Notes: a model not told the origin generated them from the letters alone. DNA of 64,000 nt from an uncultured Bacilli bacterium (GCA_934096125.1 CAKOLB010000004.1:55117-119116); one strand, 5' to 3'. Positions 16,085 to 56,950 are shown, counted from the stretch's first letter. Program-made: numbers and translations.

Positions 16085-16453
16085 TTAATATGTTTTTTCT
16101 GAGTAACTATGAGAATAAATAATTGGTTCCATAAATTCAACATAATTTAAGTAAATAATTCGGATTAAGTACCATAAGTTATTGGTGTTGTCTCGGATTA
16201 TTAAGTGGTCTTTGCCTGCTTCTTCAATAATTCCCTCATATACTTTATTTTGCCAAGCACTACTGTCGGGATAAGAGACATAAGCTTTGATTTTTCTTCC
16301 TTTGTTAAGTCTTAATATATTTTCAATATAACTTGCTTCCATCACTGGTGTTTTTTCTACTTCAATTGAAGACATGTTTCCAGGTGGAGTAGGAAAGTTT
16401 TGCGATGGAAATGTTGGATTTTGGTAGTAGTTACCATTCATAAAATTTATCAC
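16085..16453 (-). CDS. gerQ: spore coat protein GerQ-like
   Basis: Q/P-rich N-terminus, then a core (…YIENILRLNKGRKIKAYVSYPDSS…YEGIIEEAGKDHLIIRD…) resembling the GerQ (YwdL) family. Confidence 0.5.
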   Translation of the reverse strand: MINFMNGNYYQNPTFPSQNFPTPPGNMSSIEVEKTPVMEASYIENILRLNKGRKIKAYVSYPDSSAWQNKVYEGIIEEAGKDHLIIRDNTNNLWYLIRIIYLNYVEFMEPIIYSHSYSEKTY

Positions 16454-27156: not shown

Positions 27157-27807
27157 ATGAATAGATATTATTGGTTTGTAATTACTCTTTTTTTGCTAGT
27201 TTTAGTATTTTTTAGTGGCAAATCTGCTCATGCTAGTTTACCTCTTTTGGGAAGAACTATTGTGGTTGATGCAGGACATGGCGGGTTAGACCCTGGAGCT
27301 ATTTATAATGATATTTATGAGAAAGACATTACTTTAAAAATTGGAAAGTATTTAGAAGAGTATTTGACTAAAATGGGGGCAACAGTTGTGATGACAAGAA
27401 CTGATAATAATGATTTAAGTAATGGAACACAAAACAAACGAAAGAAAAAAGATTTTGATGAAAGAATTAAAATAATTAATGATAAAAAAATAGATATGTA
27501 TGTATCAGTTCATTTAAACTTTTTAAAAAATTCTAGATACTATGGTCCTCAAGTGTTTTATAATTATGATAACAAAGATTTGGCTGATTTCATTCAGAAA
27601 TATTTAAATAAACAACTTAAAGGGAAAAGAAATGTTAAAAGTATTCCAAGTAATACATATATGTATAAGAGATTAAAAAGGCCAGGATTTTTGATAGAAT
27701 GTGGGTTTTTATCAAACGCTGAAGAAAGAAATAAACTTACAAATAAAAGTTATCAACAAAAGTTTGCTCAGAGTTTAGCTGAAGCGATAAGTCATTATTA
27801 TAATTAA
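27157..27807 (+). CDS. cwlD: germination-specific N-acetylmuramoyl-L-alanine amidase CwlD-like (Amidase_3)
   Basis: Signal/TM segment, then VVDAGHGGLDPGA…DMYVSVHLN…GFLIECGFLSN (Amidase_3 zinc ligands). Syntenic with cwlD downstream of rpsI-ybaJ-ybaK in Bacillus. Confidence 0.75.
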   Translation: MNRYYWFVITLFLLVLVFFSGKSAHASLPLLGRTIVVDAGHGGLDPGAIYNDIYEKDITLKIGKYLEEYLTKMGATVVMTRTDNNDLSNGTQNKRKKKDFDERIKIINDKKIDMYVSVHLNFLKNSRYYGPQVFYNYDNKDLADFIQKYLNKQLKGKRNVKSIPSNTYMYKRLKRPGFLIECGFLSNAEERNKLTNKSYQQKFAQSLAEAISHYYN

Positions 27808-42190: not shown

Positions 42191-42238
42191 AGGTGATAAC
42201 ATGAATGATAGAGCTTTAAAAAAGGTGGTTTTGGATGC
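42191..42238 (+). pseudogene. fragment A (codons 1-16) of an interrupted CwlC-type N-acetylmuramoyl-L-alanine amidase gene
   Basis: ATG at 42191 encodes MNDRALKKVVLDAGHG, the canonical start of the Amidase_3 domain (xDAGHGG), then diverges into element sequence (RYCYSTQ*). Preceded by a promoter-like CATATAATA. Confidence 0.7.
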
Positions 42239-42373
42239 CGGACATGGGAGATACTGTTATTCTACACAATGAATAGAAACTATCAGAACTAGTTGATTTA
42301 CATGAAAATTAAACTTTAAAGAGATATTTGAAAAAGTATCTCTTTTTGCATATTAAAAAAAAGGGGGAATTAT

Positions 42374-43633
42374 ATGAGTTATGCAATATTTAGAAGTCAA
42401 CCAATAAATACACTACAAGATTTAGCGCAAATTGGTTCACACAATAAAAGAGAAAAGAAAGCTTATAAGAGCAATCCAGATATAAAATTAGATAGAAGTA
42501 AGGATAATATAGAATTAGTAAAATGTGCTGAAAAATATGTTAAAAGATTTTACGAATTAACTAAAGACTATAAAAAAGAACATGAAGAAAGACAAAAGAC
42601 AATGCGAGAAGATAGAAAAAAATCCTATTATAAAATGCTTAATGATGCTAGAAATGTAGTAGCAGATGAATTGTTATTTACAAGTGATAGTTTATTCTTT
42701 AAAGATAAAAGTAAGAAAGAAATATTAAGGTGGGCTAATACTTGTATGGATTTTGTTTATAATGATTTAGGTTATACTAAAGAACAGGTATTACATTCTA
42801 CTATTCATATGGATGAAAAAACACCACACATTCATTGTGTAGTGATTCCACTAGTTAAAAAATTAGATAAAAGAACTAATACAGAAAGATATACTATCTC
42901 AAAAAAGCAATATATCAAAAATAACGAGCATTTAAGTGAATTACAAGATAAATACCATAATAGATTAGTTAAGGCTGGTTTTGATCTAGAAAGAGGTTTA
43001 AAAGGCAGTACAGCAGAGAATATAAATATAAAAGAATTTAAAAAAATGACTAGAAGGTTAGATAAGTCATTAGAGAAAAGTACACTATTATTAAATGATG
43101 ATTATAATGACTTAAAAGTTAAATTAAATAAAAGTAAACCTACAATAACTGGCAAGGAAGTTAAAATAGATAAAGATACTTATCAAACATTAAATAAATT
43201 TATGAGTACGGCTAAAAGAATAATAGAAGATATTCCTAAAACACAATCAATGGTAAAAACTTTAGATGAGTATACCAAAATCTTTAGAAGTACGCAAAGA
43301 GAGAATATTCAATTAAAGAAAGAAGTAAATAGACTTGAATTAGAAAAAGAAGAAATCAAACAAGAAAATAATAGACTAGAAAATCTTATGTATAATTTAC
43401 TTCAAAGATTAAAAGATTTATTTAAAAAAATTCTTCATATAGGTACTGATAAAGAAAAAGATAATGTATCAAAAGAAATAAAGTATCATTATGATAATAA
43501 TTATTATAACGATTTAGATTTATGCTATATTTCTAAGGGAACAACTAAAGAAAGAGATATATTTGAACACATTGGTTATATCAAAAAAGGGTATAACAAA
43601 GAAAAAGAAGAAGATTTTGATATAAATAGATAA
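42374..43633 (+). CDS. MobV-family (Mob_Pre) plasmid recombination/mobilisation relaxase
   Basis: N-terminus MSYAIFRSQPINT… and the HxDExxPHxH motif (STIHMDEKTPHIHCVVIP) are typical of pMV158 MobM-like relaxases. Confidence 0.75.
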   Translation: MSYAIFRSQPINTLQDLAQIGSHNKREKKAYKSNPDIKLDRSKDNIELVKCAEKYVKRFYELTKDYKKEHEERQKTMREDRKKSYYKMLNDARNVVADELLFTSDSLFFKDKSKKEILRWANTCMDFVYNDLGYTKEQVLHSTIHMDEKTPHIHCVVIPLVKKLDKRTNTERYTISKKQYIKNNEHLSELQDKYHNRLVKAGFDLERGLKGSTAENINIKEFKKMTRRLDKSLEKSTLLLNDDYNDLKVKLNKSKPTITGKEVKIDKDTYQTLNKFMSTAKRIIEDIPKTQSMVKTLDEYTKIFRSTQRENIQLKKEVNRLELEKEEIKQENNRLENLMYNLLQRLKDLFKKILHIGTDKEKDNVSKEIKYHYDNNYYNDLDLCYISKGTTKERDIFEHIGYIKKGYNKEKEEDFDINR

Positions 43634-43699
43634 GTCAAAACAAAAACGGACTTTTTTCGTGGTATAATAAAGAAAAACTTGTTATTTTTGGAGGTAGTT

Positions 43700-45910
43700 A
43701 TGAACAAAGAAAATAAAATTATAAATTTTAAAAATGAAGATTCAAAGAAAAATATTTCTTTAGAATTAGATAAAAAAATGATTTTTATTTACGGTAAAAA
43801 TGGTAGTGGCAAAACAACTTTTTCTAGATCGAACGATTTGGATAAAAAATATGTATTTAATGAAGACTTCGTATATAAAAATGTTTATATAATAGACGCT
43901 GAAGGAGCAAAAATTGATTCAGGTGTTAAAAATAATTTTTCAGAGTTGCTTGTTGGAGAAGATGTTGTTCTATTAAAAGAAAAACAAAATAAATTAGAAG
44001 AAATATATAAAGAATTAAATACTAAAAGTAATGATAATGAAACATTTATCAATTCTAGTTTAGCAAGTAATGGTATTCCAAACAGTTATAATTTTTTAAA
44101 GGAAAAAGTTGATGAAACTTTTAATTATGATGAAACAAAAACAATCGAAGAACAAATGGAGATATATAAGAGCGATTTAGAATTGGAACAGACTATTACA
44201 AATGATAAAGAGTTAGAAATCAATGTGAATCAAATAAAGAAACATGAGAATATTAAATTATTAATAGAAAAAATAAAAAAAATACCATTGTTAGAGGAGT
44301 TTCTTTTTTCAGAGGATTATCCAATACTATTGAAACTTAATTCTGATTTAGACATTATTAATACAAATATTCAAAACATTAAAAGTTTAGAAGAGTTAGG
44401 GAAAAAGAAAAGGGTAGAAAAAAATGATTTTTCTATTATAAGAGATTGTATAACATTACAAGAAAAAGTGGGAACTGATATTTGTGTATTATGTGGTAAT
44501 ACTGAAATTAAAGCAGGTATAGAAGAATGGAAGAAAATATTTCAGGACAAAACAGTAAATTTAAAAACGAAAGTAATATCAGAATTAAATGATATTCTAA
44601 AAAATTGTAAAACTATTATTGATGATAGAAAAGTATATGAACCTGTTGCACCTGGTACTATTAACAATATAATAATATTTATAGGAATTATAGAAAACGC
44701 TTTAAAAGAAGTGAATTTAGGCAATGTTTTAGAAATTAAATATCAAGAAATCGTAAGAGAAAAATATACTGAAGACATTATTCAAAAGTATAAAACTATT
44801 GCAAATTACGTATTAAAGAAATATAAAGATAAAACTATTTTCTTAAATTCATCACTTAAAAGTGTAGGTGGTAAAATAAAAGTAATAAAAGAAAACATAG
44901 AAAAAATTTTAAAGCTAAATGCTGACACCCATAAAGAATCAATAAACTCTATTCTTAAAGATTTGGGATTAGATAAAGAAATAACCGTTGGTGTTGATAG
45001 ACTAGGCGGTAAAATAAAATATTCACTAAATGTAGTTAATAACAATTTATCAAAATTGAGTGATGGGCAAAAACATAAATTAGCTTTGGCAATATTTTTA
45101 AATACTATTAAAAATGAAGATTTAAAAGGTAAAACAGTTGTGTTTGACGACCCTGTTGTTGCGCTTGATGAACTAGGATATCACTTTTTTAAACAATATG
45201 TTATAAAAAATATAATGAATAATCCTAACATAGAAGAATGCCCTAATCTTATTATATTAACTCACAACTTTAATTATCTTTATATACAAACAAGTAATAT
45301 AATAATTAGTCCTAATTTACAAGACAATACAAAAATATTGAAATTAAATTCAGATGGATTTAAAGAATTAGATTTTGAATTGTTTAAATTAGATGATATC
45401 GCATTATTTAAAAAATGCTTAGATAATATTAAGTATGAAGATGAATTGATAGACTTAAGTAGTTTATACAATAAAGTTTTTAGAGAATTTTTGGATTTAA
45501 AACTAAGAATACTTGGAAATCCATTAAATGGTAATCCAGCAGAAGAAATAAAGATAATAGTATCTGATGAACAAACAAGAAAATTGTTGCAGGAACAAAG
45601 TAATAAGTTAAGTAGTTATTCAAAAAATAAAAATATAACAATAGAAGAATCGAAAGAAGGTTTTTGCTTATTATCAGATATGCTAAAGACAATAGGGTTT
45701 GATGAATATATTCTGCCTCAAAACATTGATTCAATTAAAAATATTGTAAAGAGGGAAGAAATAATTTATTCAGATATATTTTATATTATTCATGAAATAG
45801 CAAATATTTTAAGAAATGAAGATAATAAATATAAAAATTATATAAATTATTTAAATCATCCAAGAATATCATTTACTAAAAATATGATGTCAACATCTAT
45901 GGATGCATAG
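43700..45910 (+). CDS. large AAA_13/ABC-type ATPase (PrrC/RloC- or Abi-like), candidate defence protein
   Basis: Walker A IYGKNGSGKTTF near the N-terminus. Long coiled-coil/insert region. Distant signature/D-loop LSDGQKHKLALAIFLN…VVFDDPVVALD. C-terminal about 250 aa unassigned. RBS GGAGGT before the ATG at 43700. Confidence 0.55.
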   Translation: MNKENKIINFKNEDSKKNISLELDKKMIFIYGKNGSGKTTFSRSNDLDKKYVFNEDFVYKNVYIIDAEGAKIDSGVKNNFSELLVGEDVVLLKEKQNKLEEIYKELNTKSNDNETFINSSLASNGIPNSYNFLKEKVDETFNYDETKTIEEQMEIYKSDLELEQTITNDKELEINVNQIKKHENIKLLIEKIKKIPLLEEFLFSEDYPILLKLNSDLDIINTNIQNIKSLEELGKKKRVEKNDFSIIRDCITLQEKVGTDICVLCGNTEIKAGIEEWKKIFQDKTVNLKTKVISELNDILKNCKTIIDDRKVYEPVAPGTINNIIIFIGIIENALKEVNLGNVLEIKYQEIVREKYTEDIIQKYKTIANYVLKKYKDKTIFLNSSLKSVGGKIKVIKENIEKILKLNADTHKESINSILKDLGLDKEITVGVDRLGGKIKYSLNVVNNNLSKLSDGQKHKLALAIFLNTIKNEDLKGKTVVFDDPVVALDELGYHFFKQYVIKNIMNNPNIEECPNLIILTHNFNYLYIQTSNIIISPNLQDNTKILKLNSDGFKELDFELFKLDDIALFKKCLDNIKYEDELIDLSSLYNKVFREFLDLKLRILGNPLNGNPAEEIKIIVSDEQTRKLLQEQSNKLSSYSKNKNITIEESKEGFCLLSDMLKTIGFDEYILPQNIDSIKNIVKREEIIYSDIFYIIHEIANILRNEDNKYKNYINYLNHPRISFTKNMMSTSMDA

Positions 45911-46067
45911 TCTTTTTTGAAAAATGGATATATAAAGATACATTTTAGTAACACACTACGATATTGACAGAGCCAATAACGATGTGTGCCAAGGGGATTG
46001 TCCCTTTGGAAACCCTATTAGCTCTATCGCCACTTTCATTGCTAAAGCAACAAAACGTGCCACGAGC

Positions 46068-46101
46068 TAAAAAGACTGACAAAAATTAATTGTCAGTCTT
46101 T
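46068..46101. terminator. bidirectional rho-independent terminator
   Basis: AAGACTGACAAaaattaaTTGTCAGTCTT hairpin flanked by A/T runs, between convergent genes. Confidence 0.65.
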
Positions 46102-46361
46102 TCTGATGGAATATCATCAAATAGTTGTCTGATGTCTATTCCTAAAGCATCAGCAAATTTACCTATGGTTTCTAATGTTGGAGTTTTATCAATGCTTAAG
46201 CATTCTAAATCTCGAACATATCCATGAGTCAGTTCAGTTAAATCAGCTAATTCTTGAAGTGTATAACCACGTATAAGTCTGTATTTTCGAATGTTTTTTC
46301 TAACTTGAATAGATAAAATTGTTTTTGAATATCTTCTCATAGAAGTTATACACCTCCTCAC
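46086..46361 (-). CDS. XRE-family helix-turn-helix transcriptional regulator
   Basis: IRGYTLQELADLTELTHGYVRDLE HTH_3-like motif. About 85-91 aa. Confidence 0.65.
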   Translation of the reverse strand: MRRCITSMRRYSKTILSIQVRKNIRKYRLIRGYTLQELADLTELTHGYVRDLECLSIDKTPTLETIGKFADALGIDIRQLFDDIPSEKTDN

Positions 46362-46448
46362 ATTTAAATTATTTCATAAAAATTTTAAAAAATATGTCGC
46401 CTGACAGAAGTTTTTGTGATATAATTAAAATGAAAGGAGACTGCTTTT

Positions 46449-46925
46449 ATGAAGAAATGCAAATATTGTCAAACTGAAATTGACTCAAAAGCAAAAATTT
46501 GCCCAAACTGTAAAAAGAAACAAGGTAAACCAAAATGGTTAATAGCTTTAATTGTTATTATTGTAATAATGATTATTGCATCTGTTGCTGGAGGTAACGA
46601 AGAGAATGCTAAGGAAGGAAATGTTTCAAACGGAGGTAATAAGCCAACAGAAAAATTTACTTATGAAGTAACAAAACAATATGCAGATGAATATGGTATG
46701 TCTTATTATATAGAAGGTAGTGTAAAAAATAATAAGGATAAAGATTATTCATATGTTCAAATTGAATTTGTTTGCTATGATGCAGAAGGCAATAACCTTG
46801 GAACTGCTATTGATAATACAAATAATTTACTAGGAAATCAGACTTGGAAATTTAAAGCAATGGCTATGTTTAGTGATGCTGAAACTGTTGATCATTGCGA
46901 TTATCATGAAATAACAAGCTGGTAA
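46449..46925 (+). CDS. hypothetical zinc-ribbon membrane-anchored protein
   Basis: CKYCQ…CPNC zinc ribbon and one TM segment, followed by a small extracellular domain. Confidence 0.45.
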   Translation: MKKCKYCQTEIDSKAKICPNCKKKQGKPKWLIALIVIIVIMIIASVAGGNEENAKEGNVSNGGNKPTEKFTYEVTKQYADEYGMSYYIEGSVKNNKDKDYSYVQIEFVCYDAEGNNLGTAIDNTNNLLGNQTWKFKAMAMFSDAETVDHCDYHEITSW

Positions 46926-46932
46926 AATAGTT

Positions 46933-46958
46933 GGAAGTCTTTTTAAGACTTCTTTTTG
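46933..46958 (+). terminator. rho-independent terminator
   Basis: GAAGTCTTTTTAAGACTTCttttt: hairpin followed by a T-run. Confidence 0.6.
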
Positions 46959-47035
46959 TTAGATTTTTTTACCAAAATAGTCGTTTTATATTTGTTTTAT
47001 GTTATAATAATATTTAATGAAAAAAGGGTGGTTTT

Positions 47036-47335
47036 ATGTATCAATTATTGAGTTTATTCAGTTTTCTTATTAGGGCATATTTGTGTTATTGCACAATAGA
47101 TAATATTCCAATATTAGCTAATCCGATATTAAATAGTATTTTAGGGGAAGTAATATCCTTATATACTATTTTGTGGGCAATAAGTTATTTTGTTGTTGGA
47201 AGATTTTATGATAAAGGTTCTGAACCCTTGTTAGGTGTTATTTTATATTTTATTGTATATGTTGTAATTCTGGGAATTACATATTTATTGTTGTTATTAT
47301 TAACATATATTGGAGTTTTACCAATAGTTATATAA
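47036..47335 (+). CDS. hypothetical small membrane protein
   Basis: 99 aa, 3 predicted TM helices. Confidence 0.35.
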   Translation: MYQLLSLFSFLIRAYLCYCTIDNIPILANPILNSILGEVISLYTILWAISYFVVGRFYDKGSEPLLGVILYFIVYVVILGITYLLLLLLTYIGVLPIVI

Positions 47336-47338
47336 ATA

Positions 47339-47368
47339 AAAAAACTTATCGTTGTGATAAGTTTTTAT
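47339..47368. terminator. bidirectional rho-independent terminator
   Basis: AAAAACTTATCgttgtGATAAGTTTTT hairpin between convergent genes. Confidence 0.6.
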
Positions 47369-47904
47369 AGGTTTATTCTATCATCAGGTAATTTTGAGTA
47401 ATCATATTTTTCAGCACACATTTCTAAATCTTCGTAAATAGAGGTTAATTGTGCTAATATTTTTTCGGGTGGAAGTAATTCTTTATAATAATCATAATCT
47501 TTAAGTAAAAGCATCATTTGGAATATTCTTGTTCTGCAATCAGCAACTTTAGTTCTTTTCTCATAAGAATCTTCTAATAAATCCAATTGAGATTCTCTAT
47601 ATTGTTTTACTAATTCCTTTATATTTTTAGGAGTTTTATGTTTTGAAGTGTCTTTGAAACTATCTAGAATATCACTATAACCAGCAGTAGTTAAAAGAAA
47701 TTCTAAACTTATTTCTAATACTTCAGATAAACTTCTTAACATATCTATATCTGGTTTTTTAATATTACCTTTTTCAAGTTCATTATATGTAGAGTGATGT
47801 GTATTGATTAAACGAGCTACTTTTCTTTGAGAGTAGCCTTTTTTTGTTCTAGCAGTCCTTAATATTTTACTTAATTCTTCAAGATTAGCATTATTATTTT
47901 CCAT
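47365..47904 (-). CDS. XRE-family HTH regulator with C-terminal extension (repressor-like)
   Basis: N-terminal HTH (KGYSQRKVARLINTHHSTYNELEKG) plus about 110 aa of C-terminal domain. Divergent from a Rep-like ORF, forming a phage-like regulatory module. Confidence 0.6.
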   Translation of the reverse strand: MENNNANLEELSKILRTARTKKGYSQRKVARLINTHHSTYNELEKGNIKKPDIDMLRSLSEVLEISLEFLLTTAGYSDILDSFKDTSKHKTPKNIKELVKQYRESQLDLLEDSYEKRTKVADCRTRIFQMMLLLKDYDYYKELLPPEKILAQLTSIYEDLEMCAEKYDYSKLPDDRINL

Positions 47905-48116
47905 TTAAACCACCTCTAAAATGCTTTCTTCCAATAACATAATACCATAACGAAAATTAAAAAGCAATAATTTTGTCGGTTATTCTTGACAAAATTATAA
48001 TTACAATGTATATTATAGTTGTCGGGCAATCTTGACAAAAAAGGGGGATAGTAATAAAGTAGATTGCTAATGCGACTAATGTTCTTTGAAAATTTACACA
48101 AGTCTTTAAAGGTTAA

Positions 48117-48650
48117 TTAAAAGGGGGTGATAGCATAACAGAATCTATAAAAGATGGGTTTTGGATTATACCTGCAAAAGTAGGTATAGATGATGCACTC
48201 ACATTACAAGATAAATTACTATATGCTCAAATCTTATCATTAACAAGACAAGATGGATTCTGTTTTGCTACTAATTCTTATCTATCTAATTTAAATAATG
48301 TTACTCCAAAAACAATTTCTAACAGTATTTCTAATCTTAAAAAAAATAATTATATACGAGTTGAATATCACAAGGAAAAAATAAATAAAGATAAAAGAAA
48401 AATATTTGTAACTGATAAGGGGGTATGGAAAACAAATCCTGGGGATATAGAAAAAAATGTTAATACCGGTATGGAAGATAATTTCCAATATAATAATATA
48501 AAGAATAAAAAGATAAAAAAATATAATACCAATAATAATGTTCCTTGGTGGCTAGATAAAGAAATTAAAGAAAATCCTGCATCTCTAGAAGAACAAGCAG
48601 AGATGGAAGCACTACTAAGCGAATTTAAAAAAGATTGAAAAGGAGTTGGT
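48117..48650 (+). pseudogene. DnaD/phage-replisome-organiser-like winged-helix protein lacking a canonical start codon
   Basis: Open frame from 48117 translates to …ITESIKDGFWIIPAKVGIDDALTLQDKLLYAQILSLTRQDGFCFATNSYLSNLNNVTPKTISNSISNLKKNNYI… (replication-initiator N-terminal wHTH). A strong RBS AAGGGGGTGA is present, but there is no in-frame ATG/GTG/TTG until 48469. Confidence 0.35.
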
Positions 48651-48937
48651 TTTATAAATAAATACAAGACTAAATCATAAAATTTAATAAAAAGGAAAAG
48701 GGGGAATTATAAGAATGGAGGTAGTACTTAAGGCAAAACACACATTTAAAACTGATATATCAAACGAAGAATTATTTAGAGATAGATTTAACGAGATATT
48801 GTTAAAAGTTATATTGCATCTTGAGCAAAATTACCAAAGTAGTTAAAAAAATTATAAATAACTATCAAAAAGGGGTATAATATAAGTTGTAGTCGATTTA
48901 GTTCTGATAGTTATACACAGAATTGGAGGATATAACT

Positions 48938-50533
48938 ATGAGACTAAGAGTTGGTATTTATGGGAGGTTATCACAAGAGGATATAGATAAGATAAACAAA
49001 GAAGATGAAAGTGAAAGTATCCAAAATCAAAAAAGAATGTTATTAGAGTATGCTTTAAAAAATGATTGGGATGTAGTTGATATTTATATTGATGAAGATT
49101 ATTCAGGTGCTGGAGTTTATAGACCAGAGTTTGAGAGAATGCTAAAAGATTGTGAAAATGGAAAACTAGATATAGTTTTATGTAAGAGTCAATCAAGATT
49201 CTCGAGAGATATGGAAATAATTGAAAGATATATAAATAACAAATTTAAAGAATGGAATGTTAGATTTATTAGTTTAGTAGATAATATAGATACTGATAAT
49301 AAATCTAATAAGAAATCTATTCAAATATTAGGACTAACTAATGAATGGTATTTAGAAGATTTATCAGATAACATTAAAAGAACAATTAGGAATAAAAAAG
49401 AGTCTGGACAATTTACTGGTTCATTTGCTCCCTATGGTTATTTAAGAAGTGAAGAAGATAAACACAAATTAGTTATTGATCCTATTGCTTCAATCATTGT
49501 TAAAAAGATATTTGAAATGTATAAACAAGGTAATGGTTATACTAAAATAGCAACTTATTTGAATGATACTAATGTTCCTAGTCCTTATGAACACAAAAAA
49601 GCAAGTGGTAGTAAATTTGTATGTGGAAATGTTGGAAAGGAAAAATCATATTGGTATTCAGATACAATTGCTAAAATCTTAAAAGATGAAGTATATATTG
49701 GAAATCTAGTACAAGGAAAAACAAGGCATATAAGTTATAAAAATAAAAAATCAGTTCCTGTTCCTAAAGAAGATTGGATAATTGTTAAAAACACACACGA
49801 ACCTATAATAGATGAAGATACTTGGAATATAGTTTCTGCTAAATTTAAAGGTAGGACAAAGCCAAGTAAATCTGGGGAAATTCATATGTTTACTAAAAAG
49901 GTTTATTGTGATTGTTGCAAAAAAATATTTTATAATGGTTATTCTAAATCAGGAAATGGGAACAAGCATTATTATTTAACTTGTAAGTCTAGAAAATCAG
50001 GGGTGTTTTGTGAAAATAATCTATCTATTAGAGTAGATAAATTAAAAGACTTTATCCTTAATGAGATTAATGAATATATCAAAGTTTATCATAATTCTAA
50101 AGCTTTAAATGAGAAATACCAAAAATTAAATACTAAGAATAATAAAAATGAGATTCAAGAACAAATTAAAACTTTGGAAAAACAACAAACTGAATTAGAA
50201 AAATCACAAAGTAAAAAGAATTCTTATTTAAGAAAATTATATGAAGATAGAATAGAGGGTTTCATTACTGATGAGCAATACAAAGCTTTTAGTAAAGACT
50301 ATGATGATGAATTAAATGAATTGCAAAACAGAATTCAATTAATAAAAGATGAAATCACTCTCTTAAATCAAAGGCACAGTGATATGATTGATAGAGATAA
50401 AATATTTAATAAATATAAATCTATAAAGGAATTAGATAGAAGTATATTAGATGATTTTATAGAAAAAATATATATCGGTGCAGTAGATAAAGAAACGAAT
50501 GAACGAGAAATAAATATTGTATGGGCCATATAA
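48938..50533 (+). CDS. large serine recombinase (SpoIVCA/CisA/TndX-like) of element 1
   Basis: Resolvase catalytic domain (VGIYGRLSQED…SRFSRD with catalytic Ser), recombinase domain, Cys-rich zinc ribbon (CDCC…C…C) and C-terminal coiled coil. Ends 42 bp before amidase fragment B. Confidence 0.85.
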   Translation: MRLRVGIYGRLSQEDIDKINKEDESESIQNQKRMLLEYALKNDWDVVDIYIDEDYSGAGVYRPEFERMLKDCENGKLDIVLCKSQSRFSRDMEIIERYINNKFKEWNVRFISLVDNIDTDNKSNKKSIQILGLTNEWYLEDLSDNIKRTIRNKKESGQFTGSFAPYGYLRSEEDKHKLVIDPIASIIVKKIFEMYKQGNGYTKIATYLNDTNVPSPYEHKKASGSKFVCGNVGKEKSYWYSDTIAKILKDEVYIGNLVQGKTRHISYKNKKSVPVPKEDWIIVKNTHEPIIDEDTWNIVSAKFKGRTKPSKSGEIHMFTKKVYCDCCKKIFYNGYSKSGNGNKHYYLTCKSRKSGVFCENNLSIRVDKLKDFILNEINEYIKVYHNSKALNEKYQKLNTKNNKNEIQEQIKTLEKQQTELEKSQSKKNSYLRKLYEDRIEGFITDEQYKAFSKDYDDELNELQNRIQLIKDEITLLNQRHSDMIDRDKIFNKYKSIKELDRSILDDFIEKIYIGAVDKETNEREINIVWAI

Positions 50534-50575
50534 TTTAGTCCATACAGGACTTGTGTAGAATAAACATAACCTCCA

Positions 50576-50815
50576 CATGGTGGTGATGATCCGGGGACTA
50601 TTGCAAATGGAATAACTGAAAAAGATTATACTTTGAAGATAACAAATTATATTCACAACAGATTAGATGAACTTGGAGTGCCAAATAAATTATCGAGGAG
50701 TACTGATGAGACTTTAGATGCCAGTAGTAGGCCACAGAGAATACAAAGTCTTTATGGAAATGGGAGTGATGTGATTGTTGTGTCTAATCACATAAATGCA
50801 GGGGGACAGGACGCG
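50576..50815 (+). pseudogene. fragment B (about 80 codons) of the interrupted amidase gene
   Basis: Encodes HGGDDPGTIANGITEKDYTLKITNYIHNRLDELGVPNKLSRSTDETL…SDVIVVSNHINAGG(QDA*). This matches the Amidase_3 segment between the first Zn ligands (GHGG-DPGA-GNG-EK-TL-I) and the HxNxGGG motif. Same frame as the listed ORF 50633-50818. Confidence 0.7.
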
Positions 50816-50928
50816 TAATATGTGGTTAATCGTAGGCGCAGTGTATAACTTTAATAAGCTTCTTATTTTACTGTATATGATGGTATAATAGATATATCAA
50901 ATAACTTTAAAGATGAGAGGTGAAAAGA

Positions 50929-51840
50929 ATGTTATATATAACTGGTGATACTCATGGAGATTTTTATAGATTTGGTCATTTAGGATTAAATGAAGGTGAT
51001 ATTATGATTATCTTAGGGGATGTGGGTATTAATTATTACTTAGATGAATATGATAAAAAGTTAAAGGAAAGATTAAAAAGATATAATTTTAAATTTTTCT
51101 GTATTCAAGGTAATCATGAAAAAAGACCAGAAAATATTTCAAGTTACCACGAAGTGGAAATGTTTGGCGGTAAAGTATTTGTAGAAGATGAATATCCTAA
51201 TTTAGTATTTGCTAAAAATGGAGAACTTTATAATATTGATGACAAAAGTATTTTAGTAATAGGTGGAGCTTATTCTATTGATAAAGATTATAGAATAAGT
51301 AAAGGATATCCTTGGTTCAAAGATGAACAATTAACTGAGAAAGAGAGACTAAATATATTGGACGAGTATTCTGGTAAACATGTGGATATAATTTTATCTC
51401 ATACTTGTCCATTAAGATATGAACCTAAAGAAAGCTTTAAATTAAGTTTGCCACAGATTGCGATAGATAAATCTATGGAGTATTTTCTAAATGAAGTAGA
51501 GCAAAGAGTAGATTATGGTAAATGGTATTGTGGACATTATCATTTAGAAAAAATTGTGGACAAGTTAGAGTTTATGTTTGGAAGAATTAAAAGTGTTGAC
51601 ACAGGAGAATTTATTCCTAAATATGATTTCCATAATGGCTACAAAATAGTTAGAGATGTATGTAGTCAAAAAGATTATAAATATTGTCCTGAATGTAAAG
51701 GAGATAATATAATTATAGAAAAAGGTGAAGGACATAATATTAATGGTTTAGATTTTATTGCTATCATTTGTAATGATTGTAAAAAAGTTTATGGATTTAA
51801 TGATGTTAATTATAAACGTAATTGTCCTAAAGAATTGTAA
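50929..51840 (+). CDS. calcineurin-like metallophosphoesterase with C-terminal zinc-ribbon
   Basis: YITGDTHGD…GNHE MPP motifs. C-terminal CPECKGD…CNDCKK. Sigma-A-like -10 TATAAT upstream at about 50885. Confidence 0.6.
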   Translation: MLYITGDTHGDFYRFGHLGLNEGDIMIILGDVGINYYLDEYDKKLKERLKRYNFKFFCIQGNHEKRPENISSYHEVEMFGGKVFVEDEYPNLVFAKNGELYNIDDKSILVIGGAYSIDKDYRISKGYPWFKDEQLTEKERLNILDEYSGKHVDIILSHTCPLRYEPKESFKLSLPQIAIDKSMEYFLNEVEQRVDYGKWYCGHYHLEKIVDKLEFMFGRIKSVDTGEFIPKYDFHNGYKIVRDVCSQKDYKYCPECKGDNIIIEKGEGHNINGLDFIAIICNDCKKVYGFNDVNYKRNCPKEL

Positions 51841-51902
51841 CTGTGTTTACCAAATTTTAAAATTTATGCTATAATTAAGATGTAATAATTATTTGACTAA
51901 GT

Positions 51903-52550
51903 GTGGTGAGTAGTATGGAGTATAGAAAATATTCATTTAGACATGCAGAAGATATTTTTAAAAACGATAAGGATTTTACTTATTTATGGAATGAAATTTT
52001 GGAAGTGCTTGATAGTATAAGCGATGATGATTTAATTAATGAATTTAACATTGAAACTAGAAAAGCAAAAAGCATTTCCGAAGCAATTAATAAATTAATT
52101 GCAAAAAGGCTAAGTGAAAAAGGATGGCATGAACAAAGTTACATTTTTGCTGACCCTGATTATTCTGATAATAAAGGTACATGGAGATTAGATTTTGCAA
52201 AAGATAATATTGCAATTGAAGTTGCATTTAATCATGGAGGAAATGTATCTTGGAATTTAATTAAGCCAGTATTATCTAGTGAATTAAATCATGTTAAAAA
52301 GGCAATACAAACTCAAGCTGGCGTTGTCATAACAGCAACTGATGCTATGAAAAAAGCCGGTGGATTTGATAATGCTATCGGTACCTATGAAAAATATGTT
52401 GAATATCTAAAACCATTAAATAATTTGTTAACCACACCTATGATGATAATAGGATTAGAACCACCAAAAAAGTTTACTATTGAGCAGAAAAAAGAAGATG
52501 GTAAAATGGTTGGACATGTTAAATTAAAAGAAGAAGATAATAACTTTTAG
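51903..52550 (+). CDS. hypothetical protein with possible PD-(D/E)xK (BglII/BstYI-like?) motif
   Basis: WRLDFAKDNIAIEVAFNHGG gives a D-x8-E-x-(A) spacing reminiscent of type II REase catalytic cores. Very tentative. Confidence 0.3.
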   Translation: MVSSMEYRKYSFRHAEDIFKNDKDFTYLWNEILEVLDSISDDDLINEFNIETRKAKSISEAINKLIAKRLSEKGWHEQSYIFADPDYSDNKGTWRLDFAKDNIAIEVAFNHGGNVSWNLIKPVLSSELNHVKKAIQTQAGVVITATDAMKKAGGFDNAIGTYEKYVEYLKPLNNLLTTPMMIIGLEPPKKFTIEQKKEDGKMVGHVKLKEEDNNF

Positions 52551-52601
52551 ACTTACAATTTTGTGAGTCTTTTTATTTTGAAAAAGAAAGGATACGATAT
52601 T

Positions 52602-52895
52602 ATGAAAATAAAAACAAATAGAGAAGAGGGTTATGTAGTTATGGGTAACTATCATCTAAGAGATAAAAAATTAAGCTTAAAAGCAAAAGGACTATTATCT
52701 ATAATGTTGTCATTACCAGACACATGGTGTTATTCCACGCTAGGATTATCTAGTATTTGTGTTGAAAGCAGGGATACAGTTAGAAATATATTAAAAGAAT
52801 TAAAGGAAGCAAAATATTTAAAGGTAGTTGAAAATAGAGATGAAAATGGTAGATTTAATTATGAATATGTAATTTATGAAAAACCCTATATGTAA
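52602..52895 (+). CDS. RepA_N-like winged-HTH protein (firmicute plasmid/ICE-associated)
   Basis: YVVMGNYHLRDKKLSLKAKGLLSIMLSLPDTWCYSTLGLSSICVESRDTVRNILKELKEAKYL resembles the N-terminal domain of Firmicute RepA_N initiators. Confidence 0.4.
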   Translation: MKIKTNREEGYVVMGNYHLRDKKLSLKAKGLLSIMLSLPDTWCYSTLGLSSICVESRDTVRNILKELKEAKYLKVVENRDENGRFNYEYVIYEKPYM

Positions 52896-53069
52896 TAATC
52901 CATGGTATCATTACGGTTACATGGATTTCCGTATGCGGTTATTTATTCACAATAAATTATTTAGAAGTAATTAATAAAACAAATAGATAAAGTCGATAAA
53001 ACCTCTATCGATTCAAAAAAAGAGAAGGTTTTATAGTATAATTTCTCTTTTCATTGGTTAATTTAGCTA

Positions 53070-54467
53070 TTAAATAAATTCTTTTAATATATTTTCTAAG
53101 TATTTACTATTTAACCAAAAACAATGCTTTGTATATTCAGCTAATCCTGTTAACTTGTCTTTTACAGGTAATGGCAAAGTATCTTTTGAGTCTCTAGCAT
53201 GTGGTCTAACATGGCAAACTCCATTATCCCCGATTCCTGGAAAGTTAGTATTTCTTTTACCCATATTATCAATTGATTTAATAATATTTCCAGATAAAAT
53301 AATGTTTTTTGTATTATTCCACATATTTTTCACTTCATTTTCAAGTGTTAGTTCTGGCATGTTCCATAATTTTATACCACTAAAGATATAATCATTATCT
53401 TTCTTTTTAAATATAAAGAACATGTATTTTGTAGTTTCTAATTCTTCTTTTAACTTTGATTCTTCCCAATCAGTTGTTTTAAAATCCATATAATTGAAAT
53501 ATGGAAAAGGCATAGATTCTTTAATGTGTCCATTTTCTTCAACTCTGATTGTTCTTGGAACTATATTTGCTTTTTGGAATTCATCAGTATCACGAAGTCT
53601 AGATTTAACATTAAACATTCTAGCTATCAGTATTCCATTTAAATTTTTTGCATTAGAATCAATATTAAATTCATGCATTAATTGTTTTTGAGTTTTCCCC
53701 TGATATTTCTTGGTAACATTTTCAACAAATTCAGTAAATGATTCACCAGCATTTTTAATAACTTTTTCAACATCTTCATAATTTCCAATATATTTTCTAA
53801 CGAGTCCTGTCATATAAGAAGTTTTTAAACAAAATGCTCTTTGCTTTGCTTTAATTGATGAAAAAGGTTGTTCTCTAACGGATTTTTTATTTGCTCCTTT
53901 TGTACAAGCACCAAGATACATTGTATCTGCTTCTGATATCTCATGGGCTTTTCCTTGTTTAATTTTATTAATTATTGTTTCCCAATCCTTAATAATTATT
54001 GGTAAATCTTCTTTTGGAAATGTAAATAATAACTCGTGTGTTATTCTTAAATCATTTTTATTTTTGTGAGGTTCGTAAAAATACCAAATTATTTGAATTT
54101 TATTATTTTTAAACCAAAAATGACTAGAGTAAAATTCATTTTTATATTCATCCATATAATTAATTATGTTTAGAACAAGTCTTTCTTTAGCTGATAAAGT
54201 ATTGTCTTTGTTTTTCTTATACGGTGTAACTTTAAGTTCTATTCCCGCATCAATAAAGTCAGGCGCAGATATTGAATTAATGTTGTATCCATATACATTA
54301 GTTTCAAATAAATGACCAAAGAAAGCTTTATTAAACTTTTCATCATCTTTGTTATATTCATTGTTATAAATAGTTGTTACATTCATATTATTTAATTCTT
54401 TAAAAGTTTTTCCTAATGCACTTTTAGCTAAAATTTGAATTTCATCTTTTGTGTAACTTTTTGCCAT
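53070..54467 (-). CDS. Sau3AI/MutH-family type II restriction endonuclease (probable GATC specificity)
   Basis: MutH-like catalytic motif PDFIDAGIELKVTP (D…E-x-K) in the N-terminal domain. About 465-aa two-domain size like R.Sau3AI. Divergently paired with an m5C methyltransferase. Confidence 0.6.
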   Translation of the reverse strand: MAKSYTKDEIQILAKSALGKTFKELNNMNVTTIYNNEYNKDDEKFNKAFFGHLFETNVYGYNINSISAPDFIDAGIELKVTPYKKNKDNTLSAKERLVLNIINYMDEYKNEFYSSHFWFKNNKIQIIWYFYEPHKNKNDLRITHELLFTFPKEDLPIIIKDWETIINKIKQGKAHEISEADTMYLGACTKGANKKSVREQPFSSIKAKQRAFCLKTSYMTGLVRKYIGNYEDVEKVIKNAGESFTEFVENVTKKYQGKTQKQLMHEFNIDSNAKNLNGILIARMFNVKSRLRDTDEFQKANIVPRTIRVEENGHIKESMPFPYFNYMDFKTTDWEESKLKEELETTKYMFFIFKKKDNDYIFSGIKLWNMPELTLENEVKNMWNNTKNIILSGNIIKSIDNMGKRNTNFPGIGDNGVCHVRPHARDSKDTLPLPVKDKLTGLAEYTKHCFWLNSKYLENILKEFI

Positions 54468-54636
54468 AAAAATTTCCTTTCGATCTTGTTTTTATCTCAA
54501 AAATAATTTAAAATATATATATAGTGTTGATCTTTTTAAAATATTATTTTATAATTAATATGTAAGAAGTTGATCTTTTCGCTTAAATATATTATAATAT
54601 ATTTAAATATGTTTAACAATTATTAGGAGGCGTTTT

Positions 54637-55875
54637 ATGCAAAAAACAGTAGTAGAATTATTTGCCGGTGTTGGTGGATTTAGATGTGGATTAAATAATG
54701 TAAAATTAAAAGATAATAAAGTTATTGAAAAAGGTAATTGGAATTTTGTGTGGGCGAATCAATGGGAACCTTCTACTAAAACACAAGAGGCTTTTGAATG
54801 CTATTCAAAAAGATTTGGAAAGGATGATGTTAGTAATGTAGATATATTTCAAGTAAATAAAAAAGAGATACCTAATCATACTTTATTAGTTGGTGGTTTT
54901 CCATGTCAAGATTATTCTGTTGCACAGACACTATCTAATAGCAAAGGAATTGATGGAAAAAAAGGTGTTTTGTGGTGGGCAATTGCAGATATATTAAAAG
55001 TTAAGAAACCTCCATTTGTGTTTTTAGAAAATGTTGATCGCTTACTTCTTTCGCCAGCGAGTCAAAGAGGCAGAGATTTTGGAATAATTTTGAGAAGTTT
55101 TTATGAAAATGGATATGATTTAGAATGGCGAGTTATCAATGCGGGAGAATATGGATTTCAACAAAAACGTAGGAGAATTTATATAATTGCATATCACAAA
55201 TCAACTAAATATTGTAAGAAAATGAGAAAAATTGATAAGAAAAATATATTACTTAAGGAAGGTATTTTCATAAAACAGTTTCCTGTAAAAGAGAAAGAGT
55301 TTAACTCAAATGTATCAAGTATTTCAGAATATAAAGATTTAGTCGATGTTAGTGATAATTTTAAAAACCAATTTTATAATTCTGGAGTTATGATAAATGG
55401 TGAAATATATACTGCCAAATTAGAACATAATTGCGATAGTGTATATCAGTTAGGCAATTTAATAGAAACTAATAAGGTTGATGAAAAATATTTCCTTTCA
55501 AAAGATAGAATTGAGAAATTTAGAATATTAAAGGGAAGTAAAAGAATACCTAGAAAAAAGCCAAATGGAGATGATTACATTTATTCTGAAGGTTCAATGC
55601 CATTTCCTGATAATCTAAATGTTCCTGCTAGAACAATGCTGACTTCAGAAAGTGGAACTAGCAGAATGACACATGTTATAGAGGACTATAGAACTAAAAA
55701 ATTAAGATTTTTAACACCATTAGAGTGTGAAAGAATTAATGGATTTCCAGATAATTGGACAAATACTGGGATGAGTGATAAGAAACGATATTTCATGATG
55801 GGTAACGCTTTAGTAGTAAATGTTGTTGAAAAAATAGGGATTGAATTGGAAAAAATAGTAGAAATGGAAGAGTAA
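54637..55875 (+). CDS. DNA (cytosine-5)-methyltransferase
   Basis: Motif I FAGVGGF, motif IV GGFPCQDYS, motif VI ENV (VFLENVDRLL), C-terminal motif X region MMGNALVVNVV. 412 aa. Confidence 0.85.
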   Translation: MQKTVVELFAGVGGFRCGLNNVKLKDNKVIEKGNWNFVWANQWEPSTKTQEAFECYSKRFGKDDVSNVDIFQVNKKEIPNHTLLVGGFPCQDYSVAQTLSNSKGIDGKKGVLWWAIADILKVKKPPFVFLENVDRLLLSPASQRGRDFGIILRSFYENGYDLEWRVINAGEYGFQQKRRRIYIIAYHKSTKYCKKMRKIDKKNILLKEGIFIKQFPVKEKEFNSNVSSISEYKDLVDVSDNFKNQFYNSGVMINGEIYTAKLEHNCDSVYQLGNLIETNKVDEKYFLSKDRIEKFRILKGSKRIPRKKPNGDDYIYSEGSMPFPDNLNVPARTMLTSESGTSRMTHVIEDYRTKKLRFLTPLECERINGFPDNWTNTGMSDKKRYFMMGNALVVNVVEKIGIELEKIVEMEE

Positions 55876-55934
55876 ATGAAAAAATGTTAAAATTTGGTAA
55901 TTTATCTAAATAGTGTTATAATTTTATACAGAAG

Positions 55935-55975
55935 ATATGCAGTATTTGTCTTTTTAAGATGGATACTGCATTTTT
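55935..55975 (+). terminator. rho-independent terminator after methyltransferase gene
   Basis: ATGCAGTATttgtctttttaagatggATACTGCAttttttt: hairpin followed by a T-run. Confidence 0.6.
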
Positions 55976-55984
55976 TTGAAGTAG

Positions 55985-56950
55985 GTGGTAGTATTGGATT
56001 CACTTAATTATGAAGTTTTTAAAAAAATAAAGAAATATTATAATGATAATTGCAAACCTTTAATTTTTGTTGGAGAAAAATTATTATCGCAGAATAACAA
56101 ATGTAAAATGTATTTTTGTGATGTTGATTTAAATCAAGAAAAAGAAAATTATAGAAAAGTTTTTCAAGAATATTTGGCACTTTATGTTAGAAATCATGAT
56201 TTGCTAAAATATTATGATAAGATTATAAAAAGTGAAACAGAAGATGAAATTTCAGAAGCTTTAATTTATTATGGAAATGATTTGTGGAATAATACCGTAT
56301 TGATAACTACAACTACACCAGAGACTTTAGGGATATATGGAGAAGCCATTAATGATTTTTATTTAAATATTGTTAAGAATGAAAATATAATTATCACTTA
56401 TTCAGCAAAAAGGGGGTATGGTGAACGTAATATAAAAGGGGTAGATGTAGTTGCATGTACTTGGAAAAAAGATAATCTTGTACTAATATTTTCTGAGTGT
56501 AAATTTGTCGAATCAATATATAAGGCGTCGTGTGGTTTATATAATGATATAAAGGGAACTCAATATGAATTGGCACATATAAGTAAAGATTATATAAACG
56601 GATATTCTACTTATATTGTTGATAATGCTCATTCAATTTTTGCAGAGAGTAATAATTCAGATAAAATTATAGATGTTTTGGACAAATTGAATAGTAGGAT
56701 AATAAATGGAAACAAGGCGATAGATGTGTTTAATGAATTAAACATAAAAATTCAATTTAATTTCTTTGCAATTTACTGTGATAATAAATTTACACCAGAT
56801 GAAAGACAAATAATGTTTGAAAAAGTATATAATGCTTTTTATGAAAATGTAAAATTAACAGGTATTAAAAATTATGATATGGAAATTGTGTATATACCTA
56901 TTAAAAATACAAGCTCTGTGGTAAAGGAATGTATGAGACAATGGAATTGA
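55985..56950 (+). CDS. HamA-like (DUF1837-type) predicted PD-(D/E)xK nuclease, first gene of candidate Hachiman-like pair
   Basis: 321 aa. Putative nuclease motif GVDVV…(24 aa)…LIFSECKF (D…E-x-K). Translationally coupled (22-nt overlap) to a downstream SF2 helicase. Confidence 0.4.
   Translation: MVVLDSLNYEVFKKIKKYYNDNCKPLIFVGEKLLSQNNKCKMYFCDVDLNQEKENYRKVFQEYLALYVRNHDLLKYYDKIIKSETEDEISEALIYYGNDLWNNTVLITTTTPETLGIYGEAINDFYLNIVKNENIIITYSAKRGYGERNIKGVDVVACTWKKDNLVLIFSECKFVESIYKASCGLYNDIKGTQYELAHISKDYINGYSTYIVDNAHSIFAESNNSDKIIDVLDKLNSRIINGNKAIDVFNELNIKIQFNFFAIYCDNKFTPDERQIMFEKVYNAFYENVKLTGIKNYDMEIVYIPIKNTSSVVKECMRQWN

Follow-up and report, generated by a model that had tools for sequence, protein, structure and literature searches.

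Integrative and mobilizable elements (IMEs) pairing a MobV relaxase with a serine recombinase are already established. The clostridial mobilizable transposons Tn4451 and Tn4453 carry a large serine recombinase, TnpX, together with a Mob/Pre relaxase, TnpZ, and both TnpX and TndX, the recombinase of Tn5397, have low target specificity and recombine at a GA dinucleotide (PMC5704250). Among serine-integrase IMEs, site-specific ones are known that disrupt genes the host can do without, rumA among them (PMC5704250, PMC5357655), and in plasmid pMV158 as well as in IMESag-rpsI the origin of transfer (oriT) is a hairpin lying just upstream of mob on the coding strand (PMC5863519, PMC5090054). The gene-interrupting elements skin, SPbeta, and gin are fixed and pass on by vertical inheritance, and their excision is controlled by the mother cell (PMC4191935, PMC5595907, PMC5025042). 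Here we analysed a 64,000-nt stretch of DNA from an uncultured Bacilli bacterium (GCA_934096125.1, CAKOLB010000004.1:55117-119116; the whole stretch is referred to as the window), in which an element of 8,333 bp, Insertion 1, interrupts an amidase gene. Insertion 1 is very probably an IME built around a MobV relaxase and a large serine recombinase, and this assessment extends to the full model of integration, excision control, and transfer presented below. Its target, the DNA encoding a conserved motif of Amidase_3 proteins, is undescribed, and no amidase-targeting IME was found in the searchable literature.

Insertion 1 is a discrete element delimited by two copies of a 5-bp core, CATGG (Table 1). 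An earlier interpretation made from this DNA alone (hereafter the sequence-only reading) had set its limits at 42239-50575, which proved essentially right, and the features noted there were found in place or a few bases away. The interrupted host gene lies in DNA of low G+C content (~28% in the window) and encodes a cytoplasmic protein with one Amidase_3 and four LysM domains and without a signal peptide. This gene is split at two places, the second break being caused by a separate and unrelated element, Insertion 2 (50807-62218, 11,412 bp), which enters the same amidase after H-I-N-A-G-G with a GGA core. All three gene fragments are still in frame and free of stop codons, and in-silico deletion of both insertions yields one uninterrupted open reading frame (ORF) of 395 amino acids (aa) with the complete Amidase_3 and four-LysM architecture.

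The distribution of Insertion 1 indicates a mobile rather than a resident element. Combining the contigs that encode the exact relaxase with a metagenome scan for the left end of the element, we recovered copies in at least 13 distinct flank contexts, the element being 99.0-99.96% identical across loci. By comparison, syntenic housekeeping genes of the hosts are only 68-83% identical between the window and one other occupied locus (L002), and ~71% identical between the window and another (L001). An element that is ~99% identical in hosts that differ this much points to recent horizontal spread. The sequence-only reading had allowed for the element being restricted to a single gene context; instead, it occurs at other loci and in other genomes, and relatives were found in Bacilli, Tenericutes, and Mollicutes metagenome-assembled genomes from human, rabbit, goat, and chicken gut. 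The recombinase cluster is annotated ‘[Bacilli bacterium]’, and the recombinase cluster of the neighbouring element includes a protein of ‘Acholeplasma sp. CAG:878’; the host of Insertion 1 is an uncultured member of the gut Bacilli related to the latter and probably spore-forming.

Insertion 1 is also polymorphic at the very site it occupies in the window. Within the window's species, five contigs (window included) carry the element and at least 24 have an empty site, the latter encoding a 94-aa N-terminal amidase fragment (ending in HINAGGQDA) in which Insertion 1 is absent and Insertion 2 is present. The predicted 107-nt empty site, attB1, was recovered at 100% identity in five contigs of this species (L117-L121), where the same ABC-transporter genes lie on the left and Insertion 2 genes follow directly on the right; Insertion 1 hence arrived in a gene that Insertion 2 had already split. 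No intact allele of the window amidase at ≥90% identity was found among ~15 billion proteins, the best full-length matches reaching at most 73%. For targets in other hosts, the proteins restored by removing Insertion 1 exist as exact intact proteins on 37 (L002), 2 (L003), and 134 (L007) contigs. Intact alleles clearly predominate for two of these three targets, with one or two occupied loci found per target, and for L002 an intact cwlD was observed in the neighbourhood that also surrounds the occupied locus.

The serine recombinase proposed by the sequence-only reading has a complete domain set, with Pfam matches to PF00239 (5.6e-27), PF07508 (4e-25), and PF13408 (1.4e-7) in addition to DUF4368, and matches a PHROG integrase profile at 6.5e-109. 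Its catalytic serine is presumably that of the motif YGRLS. The exact protein is present on 43 contigs; a 536-aa version starting at TTG was rejected, as an exact look-up returned no record of it, whereas the 531-aa version starting at ATG is on record. The closest named relative is annotated as TndX (33.6% identity over 98% of the length), and the general layout of Insertion 1, with a serine recombinase and a MOBV relaxase encoded near opposite ends and no conjugation genes, resembles that of Tn4451/Tn4453 and of the TndX-encoding Tn5397 (PMC5704250); in this comparison TndX was assessed by sequence, and TnpX and TnpZ by description only. Unlike Tn4451 and Tn5397, Insertion 1 is highly site-specific, with 12 of the 13 contexts sharing a single attB of ~40 bp around the CATGG core. 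The corresponding attP consists of 13-bp inverted ends, TTGTGTAGAATAA and TTATTCTACACAA, around a 26-bp spacer, with the centre of symmetry on the CA of CATGG, which we infer to be the crossover dinucleotide.

The attB consensus, T.gTT.T.GATgCtGG.CATGGtGGt.aTGATCC.GG (attB within its flanks, GATGCCGGACATGGTGGTGATGATCC), encodes the zinc-site motif D-x-G-H-G-G of Amidase_3 proteins. In the 12 contexts that share it, the left flank ends in GAT-GCN/AGT/CCT-GGN-CATGG and the right flank continues with NGG-NNN-GAT-CCN-GG, and Insertion 1 splits the Amidase_3 gene after the histidine codon of D-x-G-H-G|G, always in the same orientation. DNA-level conservation of this motif allows the element to insert into several paralogous amidase genes in different species. 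Among the six targets that were typed, L002 and L008 are of CwlD type, whereas the window, L001, L003, and L007 are of LysM type; the restored L002 target, which a source lists as CwlD, matches the CwlD model along its full length with 187.6 bits (cutoff 221.55). The DxGHGG-encoding DNA thus represents a multi-copy landing pad usable across species, and insertion there can knock out CwlD-type or LysM-type amidases, with a possible effect on spore cortex maturation or autolysis. The window also holds the host's own CwlD-like amidase gene (27157-27807), intact and downstream of rplM-rpsI, with an unoccupied attB-like sequence, GATGCAGGACATGGCGGG. Its product matches the CwlD model over the full length at 193.8 bits, again below the cutoff, and is the orthologue of the occupied L002 target.

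For the relaxase, the sequence-only reading had proposed a MobM-type protein, and profile searches agree: it matches Pfam Mob_Pre (PF01076) at E = 8.4e-28 (98 bits against a threshold of 25.5, profile positions 1-196 of 196) and the NCBIfam MobV equivalog at 109.3 bits (cutoff 100). When aligned to the MobM structure (PDB 4LVI), H23 of GSHNKR (H-N-K-R) falls on the catalytic H22 of H-N-E-R, and IHMDEKTPHIH matches VHLDESTPHMH, i.e., the HxDExxPHxH metal site. The catalytic histidine and the metal-site residues are invariant in 14 homologues that are 59-93% identical, so that the loss of catalytic residues envisaged by the sequence-only reading did not materialise and the relaxase is predicted to be catalytically intact. 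The exact protein is found on at least 22 contigs, and a full-length MobV relaxase is kept throughout the element family. Insertion 1 shares with pMV158 the relaxase fold family, the catalytic histidine, the HxDE..PHxH motif, and a coding-strand hairpin just upstream of mob. However, MobM is matched only distantly (phmmer E = 2.2e-10) and in the N-terminal domain alone, the overlapping IR1/IR2/IR3 repeats and the GTGTG/TT nick site of pMV158 are lacking, and Insertion 1 is chromosomal and integrative rather than a rolling-circle plasmid. The most numerous relaxase relatives (L012-L053, e.g., L016 8176-11242), 59-60% identical, belong to another type of element, in which the gene directly upstream of mob encodes an unrelated serine recombinase (~24% identical) and the start of mob is overlapped by a short ORF.

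No VirB4, VirD4, TcpA, or FtsK-type domain was detected in the nine ORFs of Insertion 1 with Pfam, NCBIfam, or PADLOC, nor any conjugation domain (type IV secretion system (T4SS) or coupling protein) in the eight non-relaxase ORFs with PHROG, and an Rfam scan of 41000-63500 returned nothing at gathering thresholds. Together with the precise attachment sites, the empty sites, the many loci, and the intact enzymes, this gene set bears out the earlier proposal of an IME with integrase and mob genes and without conjugation genes.

In the mechanism that we propose, the TndX/TnpX-like recombinase encoded at the right end would recombine attP with an attB in Amidase_3 motif DNA, and integration is the demonstrated step of the scheme. 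Excision would be controlled by the XRE repressor, predicted to bind a pair of 21-nt operators flanking a strong rightward sigma-A promoter. This promoter would drive the genes for the HTH_36 protein, the 43-aa protein, and the recombinase, the latter also having a promoter-like motif of its own. For transfer, the MobV relaxase would act on the excised circle, using a histidine nucleophile and the HxDE..PHxH metal site and probably nicking at the conserved hairpin upstream of mob or just 3′ of it. Export would then follow via the mating pore of a co-resident conjugative element, as the IME itself encodes no T4SS or coupling protein.

Several observations weigh against this scheme. The attP junction string expected of an excised circle, AACATAACCTCCACATGGGAGATACTGTTATTC, had no match in JGI metagenome contigs. 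Mobilization in trans by a co-resident conjugative element is our inference, and no helper conjugative element was identified. For excision control, what speaks for the model is the geometry of the promoter and operators, and that only. Finally, one copy of Insertion 1 (L105 6366-7760) lies outside the amidases, in the gene of a 464-aa glycine-rich protein, at W-G-A-H-G|G. This protein contains repeated ‘FDYTGGEQ..AP.(S/T)GTYKLE.WGA(Q/H)G’ units, and the insertion point is a secondary attB sharing GGAGCACATGG. Since one copy lies in a non-amidase gene, what is recognised is a DNA sequence and not a gene.

Table 1. Features of Insertion 1 and its junctions with the host amidase gene, in window coordinates
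Feature	Position	Strand	Details
Host Amidase_3/LysM gene, 5′ fragment MNDRALKKVVLDAGHG	42201..42247	+	last 5 nt CATGG (42243-42247) = attL core, common to attR
Left terminal inverted repeat TTATTCTACACAA, P′ arm of attP	42257..42269	.	reverse complement of 50551-50563; identical in all copies across hosts
Conserved hairpin AAAGAGATATTT-GAAA-AAGTATCTCTTT, then TTG	42318..42345	+	29 nt upstream of mob; candidate oriT or intrinsic terminator/insulator
MobV (Mob_Pre) relaxase, 419 aa	42374..43633	+	H23 in motif HxxR; H145-x-D-E-x-x-P-H152-x-H154
Cargo: AAA_13-family ATPase, 736-743 aa	43700..45910	+	Pfam AAA_13 1.3e-13; weak PADLOC PDC-S06 1.2e-11
Small HTH_3 (XRE-type) regulator	46086..46361	-	Pfam HTH_3 6.7e-8; backbone, 96-99% identical in L011 and L026
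Zinc-ribbon, transmembrane, FxLYD-domain protein, 158 aa	46449..46925	+	NCBIfam FxLYD_dom 1.9e-22; PHROG 14275 3e-30
Terminator-like hairpin after FxLYD gene	46933-46953		terminator scan
Hydrophobic membrane-like protein, 99 aa	47036..47335	+	without family match
XRE/CI-like repressor, 179 aa	47365..47904	-	HTH_3 and ~100-aa C-terminal domain without family match
Regulatory switch (putative)	47973..48039	+	two 21-nt operator-like direct repeats TTGTCGGNNANTCTTGACAAA (47973-47993, 48019-48039)
HTH_36 winged-helix protein, 167 aa	48135..48638	+	apparent ATA start after ribosome-binding site AAAGGGGGTGA
43-aa ORF directly upstream of recombinase	48715..48846	+	candidate directionality or regulatory factor
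Large serine recombinase, 531 aa	48938..50533	+	Resolvase, Recombinase, Zn_ribbon_recom, DUF4368
Right terminal inverted repeat TTGTGTAGAATAA, P arm of attP	50551..50563	.	13 bp
attR core CATGG	50576..50580	.	host amidase frame resumes here (H-G-G-D-D-P-G...)
Host amidase middle fragment, between Insertion 1 and Insertion 2	50581..50806	+	Insertion-1-free form (94 aa) on at least 24 contigs

The inverted repeat that the sequence-only reading had noticed at about 42320-42345, and taken for a plausible oriT, is real and slightly longer than thought. AGAGATA (42320-42326) pairs with TATCTCT (42337-42343), and inclusion of G·T pairs extends the stem to 12 bp around a GAAA loop. Considered in the window alone, this hairpin is unexceptional, with a DNA fold of −6.4 kcal/mol (z = −1.5) that is equalled by 15 of 200 shuffles. 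Its conservation is more telling: in 21 diverged relatives, the equivalent position on the same strand, 25-45 nt upstream of mob, also holds a hairpin, with the common stem GGTATG/CATATC and with the compensated variants GGTACT/AGTATC, GATACTTT/AAAGTATT, and GAGATA/TATCTC. Across these relatives 87% of the hairpin cells are paired, against 75% in shuffles (0 of 500 as high), and all seven scored pairs have changed on both sides, which only 2 of 500 shuffles reach. The covariation score is 0.52, against 0.29 in shuffles (0 of 500), and does not exceed 0.29 when the partners are slid. The stem sequence GGTATG/CATATC is moreover kept even where the surrounding DNA cannot be aligned. This hairpin is absent from the 59-60% identical Mob relatives with a recombinase directly upstream of mob, and that subfamily therefore provides no independent test of it.

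We consider the chance that this hairpin is the oriT, possibly doubling as an attenuator, to be slightly better than even. Its position, strand, and covariation leave the original proposal plausible, and small MobV plasmids of C. baratii and Priestia likewise have a hairpin just upstream of mobV. The pMV158-type nick sequence is the part that was not found: TAGTG(T/C)G/TTA, expected ~8 nt 3′ of IR1, does not occur there, the 3′ tail reading TTGCATATTAAAA. The G that follows the T-run was tried as a pMV158-like G/T nick mark and rejected, since a G within 9 nt is expected by chance. Against an oriT stand this absence, the 24-nt oriT core of pMV158 likewise having no match in the window at ≤3 mismatches, and the T-run that follows the stem in every relative (21-23 relatives), giving it the shape of a terminator. 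Streptococcal MOBV IMEs with site-specific serine integrases (e.g., the rumA-targeting ones) and IMESag-rpsI resemble Insertion 1 in having a MobV relaxase, an oriT directly upstream of mob, and a Cro/CI regulator (PMC5704250, PMC5357655, PMC5090054). Insertion 1 differs from them in its host, an uncultured member of the gut Bacilli, and in its target, the catalytic-motif DNA of several Amidase_3 paralogues; IMESag-rpsI further differs in its tyrosine-type integration at the end of rpsI, and its oriT nick sequence GTGCG/T was not found in Insertion 1.

The T-run and the missing nick motif raise the question of whether the hairpin is instead a Rho-independent terminator or insulator, the actual oriT lying elsewhere or being unrecognised. 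Such a terminator would stop transcription coming from the interrupted host gene or, in the circular form, from the recombinase gene, whose stop codon would then lie ~120 nt upstream of the hairpin. An A-tract at the start of the stem, an RNA fold of −12 kcal/mol (z = −2.6), and the retention of G·U wobble pairs on the sense strand all fit this explanation. However, the gap between hairpin and mob start leaves no room for a promoter, meaning that the mob promoter must overlap or precede the hairpin and that a strong terminator would silence mob. In addition, it is the stem sequence and not merely its pairing that is conserved among elements with unalignable flanks, the equivalent hairpins of the MobV plasmids have no T-run, and a simple terminator scan did not call the hairpin, because it has too few G-C pairs. 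A terminator in place of an oriT is accordingly possible but doubtful, and the two functions would be compatible with each other.

The right half of Insertion 1 carries a conserved regulatory and integration module. As the sequence-only reading had recognised, it begins with a divergent XRE repressor (Pfam HTH_3, 1.6e-13; NCBIfam RstR-type, 1.9e-10; exact protein on 178 contigs). A rightward sigma-A-type promoter (TTGACA-17-TATATT, 47986-48014), which is the best promoter match in the element (11/12), has its −35 box inside the first copy of the TTGTCGGNNANTCTTGACAAA repeat and its start region just upstream of the second copy. The repeat pattern has two matches in the window where none is expected. 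The geometry is what one would expect of a rightward operon that leads to the recombinase gene and is under repressor control. Between the 43-aa ORF and the recombinase gene lies a second promoter-like motif, TATAAT..TTGTA, which is conserved in diverged relatives.

The first gene of this putative operon had been described as a DnaD- or Rep-like ORF, which is not supported beyond the N-terminal domain. Its product matches Pfam HTH_36 (5.1e-9), a PHROG ‘replication initiation’ profile (3.5e-15), and a DnaD-like helicase loader (3.9e-8), so that the N-terminal winged helix does resemble replication-initiator and DnaD-like families. These PHROG matches cover only the N-terminal 100-150 positions of profiles that are 283-459 positions long, and no DnaD_N or DnaB_2 (PF07261-type) domain was matched at E ≤ 1, leaving the DnaD C-terminal domain undetected. 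The reading frame is open over 48117-48638, yet its first canonical start codon (ATG, GTG, or TTG) comes only at 48471. The ATA at 48135, preceded by a strong ribosome-binding site, is conserved in two relatives (L011 and L026, the latter with a protein only 80% identical), distant homologues use ATG, and the gene looks like a case of AUA initiation. From its domain content, the HTH_36 protein is best described as a putative DNA-binding member of the integration and regulation module, with a possible role in replication. Homologues of the 43-aa ORF that follows (MEV.YNV.Y...LL.VIL.LE...NNS) occur at the same position in all diverged relatives examined, as does the gene order HTH_36, 43-aa ORF, and recombinase. 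At least 998 contigs carry the exact 43-aa sequence, a count well above those of the relaxase (~22) and the recombinase (43).

A repressor, a protein resembling replication initiators, and an integrase could also be read as a lysogeny module, which would make Insertion 1 a phage satellite or cryptic prophage remnant spread by transduction. The CI-like layout of the switch and the PHROG matches of the integrase, the repressor, and the HTH_36 protein speak for this idea. However, the 8.3 kb contain no capsid, terminase, portal, tail, or lysis gene and no evident packaging signal, the HTH_36 protein has no detectable replication or helicase-loader domain, and a full-length MobV relaxase, predicted to be catalytically intact, is kept across the family. 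We rejected a prophage or satellite origin on the lack of virion and packaging genes and regard it as extremely unlikely.

The sequence-only reading had further suggested that Insertion 1 doubles as a sporulation intervening element, and this did not hold up. Like skin, SPbeta, and gin, Insertion 1 is a serine recombinase element that interrupts a coding sequence, its precise excision would restore an ORF, its host is probably a spore former, and some of its targets are cwlD-like. A developmental element of this kind would persist in the germ line, and its excision, restricted to the sporulating mother cell, would rebuild a late-sporulation amidase. Consistent with such a role, the relevant gut Bacilli orders include predicted sporulators (PMC10868615), some targets are CwlD-type, as with the full-length model alignment of L002 and its name in a source, and the window amidase lacks a signal peptide, lies near a sleB-like gene, and consists of three in-frame, stop-free fragments. 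The host probably forms spores, judging from its gene content: YabG scores above the NCBIfam cutoff, and GerQ-like (just below its cutoff), SpoVB-like, and CwlD-like genes are present. Sporulation-type genes in the window lie at 435-923, 5209-5985, 10890-12515, and 16085-16453 (YabG, GerQ-like, SpoVB-like, and SpoVT/AbrB-like), and the sleB-like gene is located just beyond the amidase.

Unlike the skin, SPbeta, and gin elements, however, Insertion 1 is polymorphic, horizontally spreading, and relaxase-encoding, and its control appears to rely on sigma-A and an XRE repressor. It is not fixed in the window's species, where empty sites outnumber occupied ones, and intact alleles exist in other hosts on 2 to 134 contigs and predominate for two of the three restored targets. 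Since the window gene had already been split by Insertion 2, excising Insertion 1 alone could not restore its function. The targets comprise several amidase paralogues and an unrelated glycine-rich protein, and the intact relaxase and ~99% identity across species point to horizontal and not vertical spread. Ahead of the recombinase, only sigma-A-type promoters under an XRE operator were recognised, by a scan that recognises sigma-A-type promoters and does not cover those of sigma-E or sigma-K. Upstream of the amidase start, CATATAATA was considered as a sigma-E or sigma-K promoter and rejected, its −35 region and spacing being a misfit by eye and the sequence being equally readable as a sigma-A TATAAT. 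Overall, a developmental role for Insertion 1 appears very unlikely, and a mobile IME remains our interpretation.

Insertion 1 belongs to a family with exchangeable cargo. The order mob, cargo, XRE, HTH_36, small ORF, and recombinase recurs in diverged relatives (Mob 52-56%, recombinase 48-52% identical), and those with a readable junction or downstream flank lie at a DAGH|GG motif or have amidase sequence directly downstream. The slot that separates mob from the regulatory genes differs among relatives. In L011 (11673-14032) it holds a SMODS cyclase and a SUa-2TM effector, a CBASS-like pair, whereas in L026 (11278-12295) it is occupied by a Peptidase_M78 and HTH_3 pair resembling ImmA/ImmR. 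For the AAA_13 ATPase found in this slot in the window, matches to defence systems were limited to weak ones in PADLOC and NCBIfam (PDC-S06, mad3/mad8, AbiLi, and ABC-type P-loop), and no system could be assigned. The cargo looks defence-like, unlike the catP of Tn4451/Tn4453, and Insertion 1 also differs from these transposons in having, upstream of the recombinase, an apparent XRE/operator switch together with an HTH_36 gene and a conserved 43-aa gene.

These findings leave the IME concept itself unchanged. Insertion 1 differs from known systems in its host clade, in a strict attB that lies within the coding sequence of an enzyme's catalytic motif, in its conserved XRE/HTH_36/43-aa module, and in cargo that can be swapped. 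The findings reveal an evidently active and cleanly delimited IME family in uncultured, small-genome gut Bacilli (RF39/RFN20-like), a group in which mobile elements have hardly been described, and one that moves exchangeable, partly defence-like cargo between hosts. The recombinase, with an attP/attB pair of ~40-50 bp defined to the nucleotide, is in addition a candidate integrase for genome engineering.

Insertion 2 deserves separate mention. It looks fixed in the window's species, the C-terminal gene fragment being found on 77 contigs and no intact allele at ≥90% identity, and would be a better candidate than Insertion 1 for a fixed intervening element, if there is any in this gene. That the amidase-targeting serine-recombinase elements of these gut Bacilli, Insertion 2 with its apparent fixation above all but also the Insertion 1 family, act as regulated switches of gene integrity strikes us as very unlikely. 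If true, they would excise in the mother cell or upon XRE de-repression and rebuild an amidase of spore-cortex or mother-cell-lysis function; one IME would then combine active transfer with the role of a developmental intervening element, and restoring one gene would take the excision of two independent elements. Insertion 2 encodes its own large serine recombinase (60464-62089, ~32% identical to that of Insertion 1), a MutH/Sau3AI-like endonuclease, a Dcm-type methylase, a BglII-like endonuclease, a DEAD helicase, a metallophosphatase, and a small HTH_36 protein, with no relaxase, and its recombinase also adjoins a LysM amidase in a second host context. The amidase that bears Insertion 1 in L001 (18285-21260), and likewise in L004, has a further break immediately behind HINAGGG, caused by a different element that begins with genes for an AAA ATPase and a Peptidase_S8 protein, which suggests that this second Amidase_3 motif is an insertion hot spot as well.

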